Assembly: GCA_027310605.1 (NCBI GenBank)
Contig: DAIDAN010000001.1
Location: forward strand, 1 to 29,146
Source of the DNA: Candidatus Aenigmatarchaeota archaeon
Lineage (GTDB): Archaea; Aenigmatarchaeota; Aenigmatarchaeia; Aenigmatarchaeales; DAIDAN01
Length of the DNA stretch: 29,146 bases
Direction of reading: 5' to 3'
The translations under genes and the position numbers were made by a program. A model generated the notes under the pieces. It saw nothing but the letters and a program-made list of their open reading frames with translations. It did not search any database and was not told where the DNA came from. This document shows positions 3,368-20,491 of this stretch, piece after piece; the stretch's first letter is position 1; each line of letters opens with the position of its first letter.

Positions 3368-3510
3368 GCCGAGATAGCCTAGCAAGGCAAGGCGTCTGCC
3401 TGCGAAGCAGATGACACCCCAAGTGTCGCGCGGCGCACGAAAAATTTCATTTTTCGGCGGAGCCGGAAACCGAAGGTTTCCGTGCCGTTCGAATCCCGCT
3501 CTCGGCGCCA
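3368..3510 (+). tRNA. tRNA with serine-type body (long variable arm, G73) but GCG anticodon; 53-nt insertion between T-stem positions 52/53; encoded CCA
   Basis: Acceptor GCCGAGA/TCTCGGC; D-stem GCCT/AGGC; anticodon stem TCTGC/GCAGA with loop CT-GCG-AA (3402-3404); variable stem GACAC/GTGTC; T-stem GCGG|G/CCCGC restored by removing 3434-3486; TTCGAAT loop; G-CCA end. Confidence 0.85.
3434..3486. repeat. Multi-hairpin element family A, copy 1 (in tRNA T-stem)
   Basis: C-GCACG AAAAAT ttc ATTTTT CGGCggaGCCG GAAACC gaa GGTTTC CGTGC-C. Confidence 0.9.
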
Positions 3511-3610
3511 AAATAATTATCATTGAATTCAGAAAAAATCAGAATGGCCGTTAAAGCCGCTGATGCGAACGCCGCTACCATCGTATCTCCTTCAACTCAA
3601 TCCGTATCTA

Positions 3611-4888
3611 TCACTTGAAACCCCTCTCCAAGCCGAACATGTGCGCCGCCTGCGCGTCCAGCGGATAGAGATTTTGTTTTTTTCCAATCAGCTTCTCAAC
3701 GCCTGTAATTTTCTGCGTCGCGCACAGCATCTGGAGTTCCTCTTTCAATGCTTCAACATAATTCACCACTCCTTCGGCCTTCGCGACATTCGCTGCAATC
3801 AGGAACGGCCGCCCCAGGCTCGCGCCGCTCGCGCCGAGCATAATCGCCTTGCCGATATCGAGGCCGTTGTTATATCCGCCGGCGAGCAGGATGTCGAAAT
3901 CCGGCTTTTTCCCAATCATGGAAAAGATTGTCGCGGAAGGCACGGACATCTCGTTCATTACCAGCCAGGGGCTCATTCCGGTTCCGCCGCCGAACCCGTC
4001 TATGGTCAGGCATTCAATCCTTATTCCGTTTTCGCTCTTCAGATTTTGCAAGGTTGAAATCAGCTTCAGTATTCCGGTTCCCATCCCGGTTTTCACCCAA
4101 ATCGGCAGACCCAGATTCGAGAATTTCATTATGTTTTTTTTCAGCTGCTCGTCCGAGAGCGAACCCGGCTGCACATGGCGCTGGTAGGTGCCGTCCTTGT
4201 TCTTTATGACGATGTAGCCGAGCTTTTTATATTTTTCAGCGAGCGCGTCGTCTTCGAACTTTACCTCTCCGCCGAGCCCCTGCTTTGCGCCCTGCCCGAT
4301 TTTCACCTCTATCGCGTGCGCGCCGAGCGCCGCGCCCTTCTCGAAGACGCCCTGTTTTATATCTTCTCCGTTCCCCTGCACAATCATCGCGCCCCGCTTC
4401 TTGTAATTGTCGAGGAACGGCTGCATCCTTTCCTTCAATCCCGCTTCGCCGTAAGTCGCGAGAACATTCTCGCCGATTACAACCGCTATTCCCGCTTTCG
4501 CCGCGCCTTCGGCGAGGGCCGCACCGCGCAAATGCGCAACCTTTGTGGAGCCCATCGCAGCGACCGATATAGGCACGGAGAATTTGAAGGAGCCGATTTC
4601 CATCTCTGTTGAGACATTCTTGAAGACTATGGAGTCGCCGTAAAGCTCCGGCAGGATTTGGATGTCCTCGATGTTCGGCAGCCTTTTCTCCCCGCCGAAC
4701 TGCGCAACTCCGAAAGGGTCTGGAAAGACAGTCCTGCCGGTCTTCGCCTTCAATCCTATCTCACAGTTCCCGTCCAAAGTGCAGACGGAGCAGATGCCCC
4801 CCTGGCAGACATGCTCCTCGAAGGTCGCTTTCGTCTTTGTCACAATATCAGCGTTTTGGTGCCTTCGCAATGCTTTTTCACTATACAT
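3611..4888 (-). CDS. Stand-alone FMN-binding glutamate synthase-family protein
   Basis: 425 aa; PISVAAMGS, EVKIGQGAKQGLGG (cf. EIKxxQGAKPGxGG), IDGFGGGTG, AIMLGASG; N-terminal Cys cluster CX4CX2CX5C. Confidence 0.85.
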   Translation of the reverse strand: MYSEKALRRHQNADIVTKTKATFEEHVCQGGICSVCTLDGNCEIGLKAKTGRTVFPDPFGVAQFGGEKRLPNIEDIQILPELYGDSIVFKNVSTEMEIGSFKFSVPISVAAMGSTKVAHLRGAALAEGAAKAGIAVVIGENVLATYGEAGLKERMQPFLDNYKKRGAMIVQGNGEDIKQGVFEKGAALGAHAIEVKIGQGAKQGLGGEVKFEDDALAEKYKKLGYIVIKNKDGTYQRHVQPGSLSDEQLKKNIMKFSNLGLPIWVKTGMGTGILKLISTLQNLKSENGIRIECLTIDGFGGGTGMSPWLVMNEMSVPSATIFSMIGKKPDFDILLAGGYNNGLDIGKAIMLGASGASLGRPFLIAANVAKAEGVVNYVEALKEELQMLCATQKITGVEKLIGKKQNLYPLDAQAAHMFGLERGFK

Positions 4889-4948
4889 GGCAACACCTCA
4901 AATTTCATTTTTGATTTTTGAAAATGAAAGCAATACGACTCGATTAAC

Positions 4949-4991
4949 ATCATTACGGCTTGATTTGCAGGAACGCTGAAATACGAATCAG
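4949..4991 (+). repeat. Dispersed repeat family B, copy 1
   Basis: CATTACGGCTTGATTTGCAGGAACGC (4951-4976) matches 24929-24954 at 25/26 nt; 4951-4977 matches the reverse complement of 17007-17033 at 24/27; followed by TACGAATCAG. Confidence 0.75.
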
Positions 4992-18019: not shown

Positions 18020-18180
18020 ACCGCCGTTTCTTTTTGTATATGTAAGATGTACAGGAGTTTCTATTTTTTATAAAAAAGAATTTATCACTATGCAGCTTCT
18101 GGTTTGAGCAATGTTAATTGCTTTGTATATCTTTCCTTTTAGTTTTATCGCAAACTTGTATTCTTCTGACAATTTAACAC

Positions 18181-20172
18181 CTAAAGTTTCTGTATCACAT
18201 TCACCTTCGGCTCGAACAGCATGCCCTCGCGCTTCATCTTCTGGATCATCTCGTCAACGCCCTTCAGCCCCTGCTCCTCGGCCTCCGCGATTATGTCCTC
18301 CTTAGGAATCTGCTTGCCGATTTTCTTCTCCAATCCTTCGATGACATCCATCAGAATCCTTATCTTGCTTCTCTGCGATGACGGCGTTCCCTCGGTCCTG
18401 TCGATGTCAATCTTTCCGGTCTCGTAGTCGTAGCCGAACTGCTGCAGCGAGGACTTCATTATCCTTATCGCGCGCTCCGCATCCTGCTTTTCAACAGTCT
18501 GGCCGAGCCTGACTTTCGCGGAAGCCTCGGCCAGGCGCAGCATTGCCTCGTTCTGCCGCAGCGTTATCGCAACAGTGTCCTCGCCGCTGTACATTCCTCT
18601 CATGGTCACATAAAAGTTTTTTATGTTCTCAACCGCCTCCTTCGTCATCTTCGGACGGCAGTTCTGCCTCATGTACGCGATGAACTTTCTCAAAAATTCC
18701 GGCGAGATTTCCGGCTTCCTCAACTCCGGGTTCAGCCTGCTCTCGAGAATGTGCGAGGCAATCCTCTCGTCCTTTTCCTTGTCGGGAACATCGCGCAGCG
18801 CGAATTTCAAGTCAAACCTGCTGAGCAAGGTGTCCGGAATGTCCGTCTGCTCTATGAGCGGCCTGTAAATGTCAAAGCGCGAGAACTTCGGGTTCGCGCC
18901 CGCGAGAACGGAGACCTGCGCTGGAAGCGTCGCGATTATCGAGGCTTTCGCTATGCTTATCGTCTGCTGCTCGAGCGCTTCGTGCATCGCAACCTGGTCG
19001 TCGCGGCTCATCTTGTCAAACTCGTCAATCGCCAAGACGCCGCGGTGGCAGAGCACCATCGCCCCCGCCTCGAGAACCCAGCCGCCCATCAATTCCTCGT
19101 CCTTAAAAACCGTGGCTGTCAAGCCCGCGCCTGACGCGCCTTTTCCGCTCACATATTTTCCGCGCGGAATTAATTGCGAGACCATTTTCAGCAGCTGGCT
19201 TTTCGCGACAGCCGGATCCCCGAGCAGGAGAATGTGAATGTCCCCTCTTACCTTTGTTCCATCGGGAAGCTTCTGCTGCACTCCTCCCATCATCTGCAGG
19301 AGTATCGCCTCCTTCACATCCTCCATCCCGTAGATTGAGGGCGCGACCGAGGCAACTATTTTTTTATAAACTTCGGGGTCGGAAGCGAGCGCCTTTATCT
19401 GTTCCTCATCCTTTCCGCTTATCTCGACATCCTCCCATTCTATTTCCGCGGGCTCGGCATGGTTCGCTTCCATGAAAATGTCCGACTGCACCATCTTCGC
19501 GCCGCCCTTCGTTTTTTTCGGCAGCTCCTTTATCACTCCCGTGACTTTAATCCTGTTGCCGGGGTCGCACTTTCTCTGCATCTCCGGAGTGGTGAGGTCA
19601 TCGCGCAGATAGATTGAAACCTGCCCCGGCTTCTCCCCGCTCGCTATCTCGAACGGCTCCTCCACCACGATCCAGCGCGAGTCGAAGAGCTTCTTGTCGA
19701 CCAGCCTGAAGCCGCGCTTGTTCCCGCACATGTCGCAGCCGCGCGGATAGGAGAGAAGCTGCTCTTTTTGCTCGACTGAAATCTTGTTCCCGCATTCGCA
19801 CTCGAATTCGGCCGTGTCGATTCTCGGCTTCACCTCGCTCGCCCTTTTCACCACGCCGTCCACGCTCACGAACTTCCCGATGTGCTCGCTGCGCAGCGAG
19901 CGGATTCTTATCGTGTTCTGCTCCGGAAGATTTTTGAACCTGACCGTGAATTTCATCCGCCCCTCGGGCAGGTCTATTGCCCCGGAAGCGGCCTTGTCTA
20001 TTTCCGGCAGCATCGCCTCCGGGTCGTTCAGGAGTTTTTCAGCCATCTGTTGGCAGTGCCTGTCGAAAGAATCGAAGTCAACGGTTATCGACTGTTTCCC
20101 CTGCTTCGCGGCGGCAAGGATTTCCTTCTCGCAGAATTCCCGGAAGAATTCCTCCATCCTTTCGCTATCCAT
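18181..20172 (-). CDS. mcm: MCM replicative helicase
   Basis: Zn finger CECG...CDMC; GDPAVAKSQLL (Walker A); GLTA; IDEFDKM (Walker B); HEALEQQ; AGANP; LLSRFD (Arg finger); ITLRQ (sensor 2); C-terminal winged helix. Confidence 0.98.
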   Translation of the reverse strand: MDSERMEEFFREFCEKEILAAAKQGKQSITVDFDSFDRHCQQMAEKLLNDPEAMLPEIDKAASGAIDLPEGRMKFTVRFKNLPEQNTIRIRSLRSEHIGKFVSVDGVVKRASEVKPRIDTAEFECECGNKISVEQKEQLLSYPRGCDMCGNKRGFRLVDKKLFDSRWIVVEEPFEIASGEKPGQVSIYLRDDLTTPEMQRKCDPGNRIKVTGVIKELPKKTKGGAKMVQSDIFMEANHAEPAEIEWEDVEISGKDEEQIKALASDPEVYKKIVASVAPSIYGMEDVKEAILLQMMGGVQQKLPDGTKVRGDIHILLLGDPAVAKSQLLKMVSQLIPRGKYVSGKGASGAGLTATVFKDEELMGGWVLEAGAMVLCHRGVLAIDEFDKMSRDDQVAMHEALEQQTISIAKASIIATLPAQVSVLAGANPKFSRFDIYRPLIEQTDIPDTLLSRFDLKFALRDVPDKEKDERIASHILESRLNPELRKPEISPEFLRKFIAYMRQNCRPKMTKEAVENIKNFYVTMRGMYSGEDTVAITLRQNEAMLRLAEASAKVRLGQTVEKQDAERAIRIMKSSLQQFGYDYETGKIDIDRTEGTPSSQRSKIRILMDVIEGLEKKIGKQIPKEDIIAEAEEQGLKGVDEMIQKMKREGMLFEPKVNVIQKL

Positions 20173-20388
20173 TTGTAAAACCTTTTGATAGGGATTTCAT
20201 TAAGGATTGAATTTGAAATAGGAACGCCGGTGTTGATATCGAGCTCATTCCTTATTGAAATATTTCTAAGGAACATATTGACAGCAAAACTATTAAAGGT
20301 TGCTGCTGCGCGGGAATTTCTCATTATGACTTGGATAACAAAAGAGAAACGCCGGTTAAAGCCGTCCCGAATATGGAAAACCAATCCA

Positions 20389-20491
20389 TGCACGAAAAGC
20401 TTTGCTTTTCGGCATGCCAAAATGCACGCGAACGAAGTTCGCGGCTACGCCGAAACTAAAAGTTTCGTGCGAACTGAAAGTTTTTTGTGCA
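20389..20491. repeat. Family A copy 5 (outer) with copy 6 (20423-20471) nested inside it
   Basis: Outer: T-GCACG AAAAGC ttt GCTTTT CGGCatGCC AAAA[inner]AAC tgaaa GTTTTTT GTGC-A. Inner: T-GCACG CGAAC gaa GTTCG CGGCtacGCCG AAAC taaaa GTTT CGTGC-G. Confidence 0.9.

Follow-up and report, generated by a model that had tools for sequence, protein, structure and literature searches.

The stretch of DNA analysed here, whose full 29,146 nucleotides we call the window, is contig C90 of a 0.70-Mb metagenome-assembled genome (G000; 178 contigs, 75% complete) of Candidatus Aenigmatarchaeota, a DPANN lineage, from a mine drainage metagenome. It carries six copies of an element of 49 to 57 nt. The element folds into two tandem, mutually inverted hairpins, and the doublet, including both closing base pairs, is present or absent as a whole, exactly and without target duplication. 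We consider it likely that this is a non-autonomous DNA transposable element, similar to the doublets built from repetitive extragenic palindromes (REPs) and known as REPINs. A preliminary description of the window had proposed a very small, structure-defined mobile element, and comparison with two congeneric genomes, G001 and the 92% complete G002, supports that proposal.

A doublet of two inverted hairpins

All six copies that the preliminary description had placed in the window were confirmed, with the following positions, sizes, closing base pairs and central bases.

Copy 1, 3434..3486: 53 nt; closing pairs C:G / G:C; centre GGA; covariance-model score 67.5 bits; DNA minimum-free-energy z = -4.8
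Copy 2, 7446..7497: 52 nt; closing pairs T:A / T:A; centre AT; model score 65.2 bits
Copy 3, 8678..8731: 54 nt; closing pairs C:G / C:G; centre GCA; in frame within the HD-domain gene 7605-8843
Copy 4, 15525..15581: 57 nt; closing pairs C:G / G:C; centre GGA; within the D-loop intron of tRNA-Pro
Copy 5 (outer), 20389..20491: 54 nt minus its insert; closing pairs T:A / T:A; centre AT
Copy 6 (inner), 20423..20471: 49 nt; closing pairs T:A / C:G; centre TAC; nested in copy 5; model score 58.3 bits

The exact pattern GCACG-N35-60-CGTGC occurs five times in the window against 0.35 expected, and none of 100 shuffled sequences reached five. We then used a covariance model trained on 34 copies (alignment A1), with hits counted on both strands. 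Run with its filters off, the model recovered the window's five intact copies and the interrupted outer copy starting at 20389, and no other convincing match. Copy 5 is broken within the 5' strand of its second hairpin. Its left half (20389-20419) scores 28 bits, and taking out the inner copy, 20423-20471, does yield a canonical outer copy, as had been claimed. The same composite recurs at G002:C96:17427-17528 with 95% identity.

Covariation, compensatory variants and DNA folding agree on the fold. The left half follows the design N-GC(A)C-G-AAA(A)-xx-loop-x'x'-(T)TTT-C-GGC-N', with one bulged base and a 3-nt loop, and the right half is this design reverse-complemented, with T as the bulged base. 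The distal stem of each hairpin is free in sequence, and its pairing is always kept. Base 5 of GCACG and base 1 of the CGGC on its own side covary: copies with GCACA have TGGC, and GCCA occurs together with TGTGC. These bases therefore close the side arms. The outer bases covary with the central ones: AT goes with (T,A) in 28 of 30 copies, GGA with (C,C) in 12 of 13, TCC with (G,G) in 10 of 14, TAC with (T,G) in 6 of 6 and GTA with (C,A) in 5 of 6. An independent metagenome set behaves in the same way (AT 51/53, GGA 10/11, TCC 6/8, TAC 6/7, and GC with (C,G) 6/6). It follows that the 5' outer base and the first of the central bases form a pair, as do the second of the central bases and the 3' outer base, so that the flanking N bases are part of the element. 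This is the unit N+core+N of the preliminary description, and the empty sites and empty family-B repeats described below define the same unit.

In alignment A1, 98.7% of the cells are paired under the tandem-hairpin model, with double changes at ten pairs. The two closing pairs hold in 33 and 30 of the 34 rows, respectively, with 12 double changes each. Variants of the form CCAC...GGG (three copies) and CCC...GTGG are compensatory inside one half, and they break the terminal and central stems of a cloverleaf fold. Minimum-energy folding of the five intact window copies as DNA gives two hairpins, each of which has a single bulged base (z = -4.5 to -5.8). The halves are arranged as 42 left-right doublets and 3 left-left-right-right nests; apparent solo halves are few and mostly have a degenerate partner. 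The distal stems of a doublet's two halves were identical in none of 183 cases, and each hairpin therefore folds on itself.

Two other folds were rejected. In a cloverleaf or four-way junction, the outer terminal pair is paired in only 15 of the 34 rows of A1. One long hairpin joining the left half to the right half is contradicted by the mismatched distal stems and by GCACA lying on the same side as TGGC. The preliminary description had seen GCACG/CGTGC termini, a central hairpin of CGGC and GCCG, and two side arms. The two arms do stay paired, but the terminal stem and the central hairpin are contradicted by the covariation. The termini are complementary because the two halves are inverted copies of one hairpin type.

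In normalised orientation, complementary loops occur at equal frequency (TTC 47 and GAA 44, GGA 16 and TCC 9, TTT 11 and AAA 9), and in one orthologous pair (G000 C170:1389 and G001 C22:21142) the sole difference is that both loops are complemented. Such flip-flop would be the expected product of template switching in a perfect palindrome, and template switching may explain part of the apparent compensatory evolution.

A structural regular expression found 56 strict copies in G000, 29 in G001 and none in shuffled genomes. The covariance model gave 134, 88-93 and 54 hits in G000, G001 and G002, which correspond to about 67, 48 and 27 loci, and copy density differs roughly twofold per Mb among these congeners. 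Scanning the genome and its relatives, as had been suggested, thus added dozens of copies, all restricted to the genus. The model found none in 37 other genomes of the order, save four weak look-alikes in one other genus, and the sister genus of the same family has no copies. Weak matches from the other genus (G009:C4:~297926-297979, locus L208:1501-1554, 32 bits; G027:C128, locus L209:1501-1552, 28 bits) have different hairpin feet and may represent a sister family. A scan of JGI metagenomes added 97 strict copies on 57 contigs, 76-96% identical to those of G000 and G001, and these contigs represent further members of the same genus. When Rfam was run on the window, only tRNA reached its gathering score and no family fitted the element; the best sub-threshold hit on any copy was mir-255 (18 bits, E = 0.39), so the element stands outside known Rfam families, as had been supposed. 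A search of IMG/VR for viral carriers gave 0 matches, and a literature search found no description of such elements in DPANN or Aenigmatarchaeota.

Gain and loss at precise sites

A search for orthologous loci without the element produced 16 empty sites. At each of them N+core+N is lacking exactly and there is no target-site duplication, which fixes the boundaries and agrees with what had been read from the window alone. Between G000 and G001, exact empty sites lie in a glutamyl-tRNA synthetase (GluRS)-like gene, where G001 has 18 additional residues (54 nt, encoding the peptide ARKAKLSGMPKTKEVFVH), in a second gene (17 residues, 51 nt) and at two non-coding positions, GGGA|TGTACG and AAATTT|TTTCCG. 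In 12 more pairs both flanks can be aligned up to 4 nt or less from the element, and the exact unit is missing from the partner; the flanks of one of these pairs are 98% and 92% identical. Filled sites common to diverged species are few, and turnover since the species split has therefore been high. The genus has seen many gains or losses of the element.

The flanks have no consensus beyond a weak excess of A at -1, and the earlier statement that they share no motif holds. Palindromic targets in general were considered and rejected: flank palindromy was not found as a general feature, and complementarity is limited to nested copies. Palindrome centres are preferred landing sites. The nesting first noticed for copies 5 and 6 is a recurrent event, as 6 of 85 copies lie exactly at the centre of another copy (GGCA|TGCC), against about 0.006 expected. 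A second repeat, family B (GGGGAAC|CGTTGGGGGCGAAGCCCCCCGA), has its centre filled in five copies and empty in five to six in G000 and G001. The family-B boundary is constant though the element's last base varies between G and A; the last base therefore travels with the element.

Family-B repeat, 8671..8753, + strand: split at its centre by copy 3

The HD-domain gene reads in frame through copy 3, as first described, with the translation TARKSSGIFGAAGNSVSVR. Both relatives are without the insert; indeed, their HD orthologues lack the whole 23-residue segment made of family B and copy 3. The copy lies in a unit of family B, and this unit is in turn an insertion in the HD gene. The family-B consensus, GGGGAACCGTTGGGGGCG(A/G)AGCCCCCCGA, is about 30 nt long and has its own GGGGGC-GAA-GCCCCC hairpin. 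The window copy consists of 8671-8677 and 8732-8753; others lie in G000 (C137:~2140-2170, C171:~1415-1445 and C11:~4300-4330(-)) and in G001 (C13 and C19). Several copies stand in coding-looking sequence, which reads GG(T/I)VGG(E/G)APR.

By homology-based inspection, most copies of the element lie in spacers near gene ends, including one in the S4e-L5 spacer of a ribosomal-protein operon. Copy 2 is intergenic, with an open reading frame (ORF) at 6969-7436(-) on one side and the HD gene on the other. The gene calls are heuristic and assign too many copies to ORFs because the element is stop-poor in all frames, and we counted coding copies only where there was homology on both sides or an uninterrupted long ORF. 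Seven copies were accepted: the one in the HD gene, one in the LAGLIDADG domain of an intein on G000 contig C55, and five in G001, namely in the GluRS-like gene, in three other proteins and at the N-terminus of the C55 orthologue. Each of the seven has an open frame and a length of 51 or 54 nt, with all three phases represented among them, whereas only 45% of all copies have a length divisible by 3. No gene split into two frames by a copy was found. In-frame insertion, first claimed for the HD gene, is thus the rule in coding sequence, and the lengths and open frames suggest that these copies are translated, not spliced. Copies persist at sites of little harm, which include spacers and introns, other repeats, a dispensable tRNA-like gene, and variable loops of proteins.

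Some copies lie within introns. The intron that hosts copy 4 is absent from the tRNA-Pro orthologues of G001 and G002, and the 23S rRNA gene of G000 has a 195-nt intron-like insertion (C32:~236-430) with two doublets inside, which the G001 gene (C22:~27925) is without. This 195-nt insertion is closed by a GAGCTTTTT/AAAAAGCTC helix. The tRNA-Pro intron spans 15501-15618 of the window, and its core, AGCTTTTCTTTCCCGC-element-CAAAGAAAAYCTTRAGGAAAAGAAAGG, recurs with 91% identity at a non-tRNA locus in G001 (C33:5520-5660, L078) that carries one additional precise doublet insertion. Core and element together may form a larger mobile intron-like module. The G001 16S gene is about 500 nt longer than the Rfam model and probably contains introns.

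At G000 C55:7590-12740 lies an ORF of 1717 aa. Two insertions in it, at about aa 284-738 and 955-1397, have the size of inteins, and both are absent from the G001 orthologue at C33:7547-10030; the LAGLIDADG domain of the second holds the doublet. MCM, Nre and SRP54 genes of archaeal type are present on the window and support its assignment. The MCM gene there (18181-20172) is uninterrupted, and the G001 orthologue (C4:874-4229) is split by about 1.37 kb that resembles the C55 inteins of G000 and is probably an intein as well.

The host of copy 1 is a tRNA-like gene, which the element enters in the T-stem between positions 52 and 53.

tRNA-like gene, 3368..3507, + strand: class-II (Ser-like) body, anticodon GCG, encoded CCA; Rfam tRNA model 37 bits

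Removing 3434-3486 restores the T-stem and gives a perfect class-II cloverleaf, so this part of the preliminary description stands; the host, however, appears to be a dispensable, polymorphic tRNA-like gene. It is without a counterpart in G001, where its two flanking genes are 2 nt apart. In the population data, which are assembled Logan contigs from four runs of the source sample, some contigs from three of the four runs join 3182 to 3597, the one informative joint seen, and skip the 414-nt segment 3183-3596 that holds the gene. Furthermore, ARAGORN calls a tRNA-Arg(GCG) elsewhere in the genome, on contig C124. Taken together, these results suggest that the gene is dispensable. G002 has two small ORF-like genes at this position. 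The simplest reading is that a tRNA-like gene which is dispensable or decaying has tolerated the insertion of copy 1.

No further insertions into tRNA exons emerged: ARAGORN gives the same 17 tRNAs before and after in silico deletion of 197 copies, a test of low power because the program misses most multi-intron tRNAs of the lineage. ARAGORN finds no tRNA in the window and a handful in the whole of G000, and the Rfam tRNA model gives 7. The tRNA genes of this lineage are heavily interrupted, and standard annotation will miss most of them.

Candidate mobilisers and other explanations

Several results weigh against a transposable element. A six-frame search with PF01797 found no Y1 transposase or REP-associated tyrosine transposase (RAYT) in G002 or in G000, where, at 75% completeness, the absence is not proof, and tblastn found none in 375 kb of metagenome contigs that carry the element. 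The sole Y1 HUH gene lies in G001 (C25:11389-12785) and encodes a 150-aa protein of IS200 type (NF033573). It belongs to an ordinary IS200-type insertion sequence that is not tied to the element: this sequence is absent from the syntenic G000 site on C96, and the hairpins adjacent to it are unrelated to ours. The flanks show no conserved target motif of the IS200/IS605 kind. The assembled contigs, which break at copies, contain no transposition intermediate and no population empty allele. In three diverged orthologous pairs, the only ones with both sites filled that bear on this, the element changed at 4 of 153 sites and the flanks at 115 of 887; this roughly fivefold slower change could reflect a host function. 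Finally, if the tRNA that hosts copy 1 is functional, the insertion into its T-stem is unexplained, all its other stems being perfect.

The G001 Y1 protein has the motifs HVH and YIKNQQAHH, the latter resembling the subclass 1.2 signature YIKNQKEHH (PMC6006769). Partial copies of the ends of its insertion sequence lie on C35, C47, C18 and C50. A six-frame search for TnpB (PF07282) gave only sub-threshold zinc-ribbon hits, and no tnpA or tnpB partner was seen in G000 or G002. The linked Y1/RAYT gene that the preliminary description had suggested looking for was therefore not found; the only candidate is the IS200-type sequence of G001, which is not flanked by the element. That a trans-acting HUH Y1 enzyme moves the element is unproven.

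Beyond its precise presence or absence at the DNA level, the steps by which the element spreads are ones that we infer. It would move as single-stranded DNA, its hairpin feet being cut by a structure-specific enzyme supplied in trans. This enzyme could be HUH/Y1-like, as for REPIN-RAYT and IS200/IS605 systems, or of another kind. The requirement for mobility would keep the stems perfectly paired, possibly helped by template switching within the hairpins. We tentatively consider a mobiliser specific for hairpin feet that is neither a RAYT nor an IS200 Y1 enzyme, such as a structure-specific host nuclease or a factor from the DPANN cell's host or from a virus; this is possible, if rather doubtful. 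In a bolder version, the T-stem copy would be cut from RNA by the broad-specificity processing enzymes of the lineage, so that the structure would serve at both the DNA and the RNA level.

Of the alternatives to a transposable element, a structured motif with a host function fares best, though we regard it as unlikely. The motif would act in mRNA 3'-end stabilisation or termination, or bind a chromatin or topology protein as bacterial interspersed mosaic elements (BIMEs) do, and its spread would be secondary. The location of most copies near gene ends and in operon spacers such as S4e-L5 fits this, as do the A4-5/T4-5 runs in each arm, the nearly complete pairing in A1 and the slow change in the three orthologous pairs. 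However, positions are mostly not conserved across species, as the 16 precise empty sites and the few shared filled ones illustrate. Inside proteins, an intein, introns and other copies, a role of this sort would be pointless; the roughly twofold difference in copy number per Mb among congeners and the lack of copies in the sister genus also speak against it.

Templated repair or recombination, in which hairpin DNA is captured at breaks or palindromes undergo gene conversion, would dispense with the transposase that was not found. The complementary loop flips, above all the pair with both loops complemented, are the signature of template switching in a quasi-palindrome. Yet at over 20 independent sites, whose flanks are unrelated and show no microhomology, the boundaries agree to the base, which points to specific cleavage at the hairpin feet, and the unit is a doublet and not a single hairpin. 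We find this explanation improbable.

The preliminary description had also raised RNA splicing and reverse splicing. Here the element would be excised from transcripts like an intron and would spread by reverse splicing and reverse transcription. One copy does interrupt a tRNA, in the T-stem, and every other stem of that tRNA is perfect; some copies lie within tRNA and rRNA introns. Introns are extremely numerous in this lineage, which has two genes of the EndA type; each of the three genomes contains splicing endonuclease genes, and endonucleases of broad specificity are known in DPANN (PMC5829648). But there is no bulge-helix-bulge (BHB) at the junctions, that is, no 3-nt bulges around a 4-bp helix, and flanks are unrelated between sites; at the tRNA, the sole candidate helix puts the 5' cut one base off. 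Splicing would require neither the multiples of 3 nor the open frames of all seven coding copies, and no gene is split by a copy into two frames. The tRNA host is dispensable, missing in G001 and in a sub-population, and deletion of the 197 copies revealed no further tRNA, with the low power already mentioned. The only reverse transcriptase, in G001, is part of a diversity-generating retroelement (DGR) with template and variable repeats. We consider the RNA-level route the least probable of all, and BHB splicing as such was rejected, the motif being absent in the supported fold.

A retro-element route was rejected on the same ground, the DGR of G001 holding the only reverse transcriptase. This DGR (C46:15953-19475, L091) has its reverse transcriptase gene at 15953-17098(-) and its target gene at 18240-19475(-), with a (GT)n run at the start. 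Its template and variable repeats, near 17236 and 18249, both start CTGCAGCAGCGAAACCCGATGT. The surroundings of this retroelement hold five doublets, within 0.5-2.5 kb.

Relation to known repeats and significance

The closest likeness is to bacterial REPs and REPINs. In REPINs the inverted doublet is the replicative unit, and stems undergo compensatory changes (PMC3116915). REP dimers have partners 1-5 bp apart, include heterodimers, can lie in frame within genes, where they code for about 20-30 residues, and use palindromic targets (PMC3733652). According to a survey of Y1 proteins, which describes REP systems as bacterial, the only ones found in Archaea belong to subclass 1.1, of IS200 type (PMC6006769). 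The element shares with REPs and REPINs bulged, imperfect palindromic hairpins of 20-30 nt, high copy number and mostly extragenic positions. Its inverted doublet is the unit, since empty sites are always without the whole doublet, and its partners are 0-3 bp apart, as in some REP families. It also forms heterodimers with unlike stems and compensatory changes, has occasional in-frame intragenic copies, inserts in palindromic targets, is restricted to a lineage and is inherited vertically. Unlike REPs and REPINs, it lives in an archaeal (DPANN) host and has the foot N-GC(A)C / GGC-N' in all copies, where neither GTAG nor CGTC occurs as a tag. A single-copy RAYT gene bordered by the repeats was not found, the whole unit measures only 49-57 nt, and the long REPIN hairpin is impossible for it because its halves never share a distal stem. 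In its workings the element thus resembles a REPIN and can be seen as a new, archaeal form of this kind; membership of the REPIN-RAYT family itself cannot be demonstrated, since the tag and the cognate RAYT, two defining features of that family, were not found.

Rickettsia palindromic elements and other intragenic REPs are in frame and translated, adding 17-30 residues in tolerant regions (PMC3733652). Our element resembles them as a small palindromic repeat translated in frame within protein genes. It differs in being mostly non-coding, in its unrelated sequence and archaeal host, and in occurring also in introns, a tRNA and nested copies. The derivatives of IS200/IS605 that resemble miniature inverted-repeat transposable elements, such as the PATEs of haloarchaea (PMC3119063; mechanism in PMC6006769), share hairpins with an unpaired base near both ends, the lack of target duplication and the expectation of single-strand intermediates, and one relative, G001, has an IS200-type Y1 gene. 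In contrast, the ends of IS200/IS605 are direct and the element's hairpins are inverted; IS200/IS605 enter on the 3' side of a constant tetra- or pentanucleotide, and no such motif was seen for the element; and the hairpins beside the G001 insertion sequence are different ones, with no tnpA or tnpB partner in G000 and G002.

Archaeal BHB introns, including "transposed" tRNA introns, are also short insertions, can occupy non-canonical tRNA positions and are found in this intron-rich archaeon, where some copies of the element sit inside them. But the element and its flanks form no BHB, copies occur in spacers, and those in coding sequence appear to be translated. Cyanobacterial small dispersed repeats are, like the element, mobile, shorter than 60 nt, defined by structure, nested in themselves and found in conserved genes; they are single hairpins of 21-27 nt, unlike its doublet, and are unrelated to it in sequence and in host. 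In yeast mitochondria, GC clusters (PMC4478555) share the same traits of mobility, length below 60 nt, structural definition, self-nesting and presence in conserved genes, but sequence and host are again unrelated, and GC clusters have target preferences with duplication.

The element matters in several ways. The repeats break assemblies of metagenome-assembled genomes, and gene callers will read through the copies, with consequences for annotation. Genomes of only 0.7-1 Mb tolerate about 0.5% of such DNA, and the element offers a route to additions of 17-18 residues in essential proteins such as an aminoacyl-tRNA synthetase, an HD hydrolase and an intein endonuclease. It is also a compact, base-exact substrate for tracing an archaeal enzyme that recognises hairpin feet. 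REPs and REPINs have been seen as a bacterial speciality tied to a domesticated RAYT, and here a DPANN genus shows the same population behaviour with no RAYT found. If the mobiliser is indeed neither a RAYT nor an IS200 enzyme, the element would give Archaea their first REPIN-like replicator system, one that runs on new machinery.

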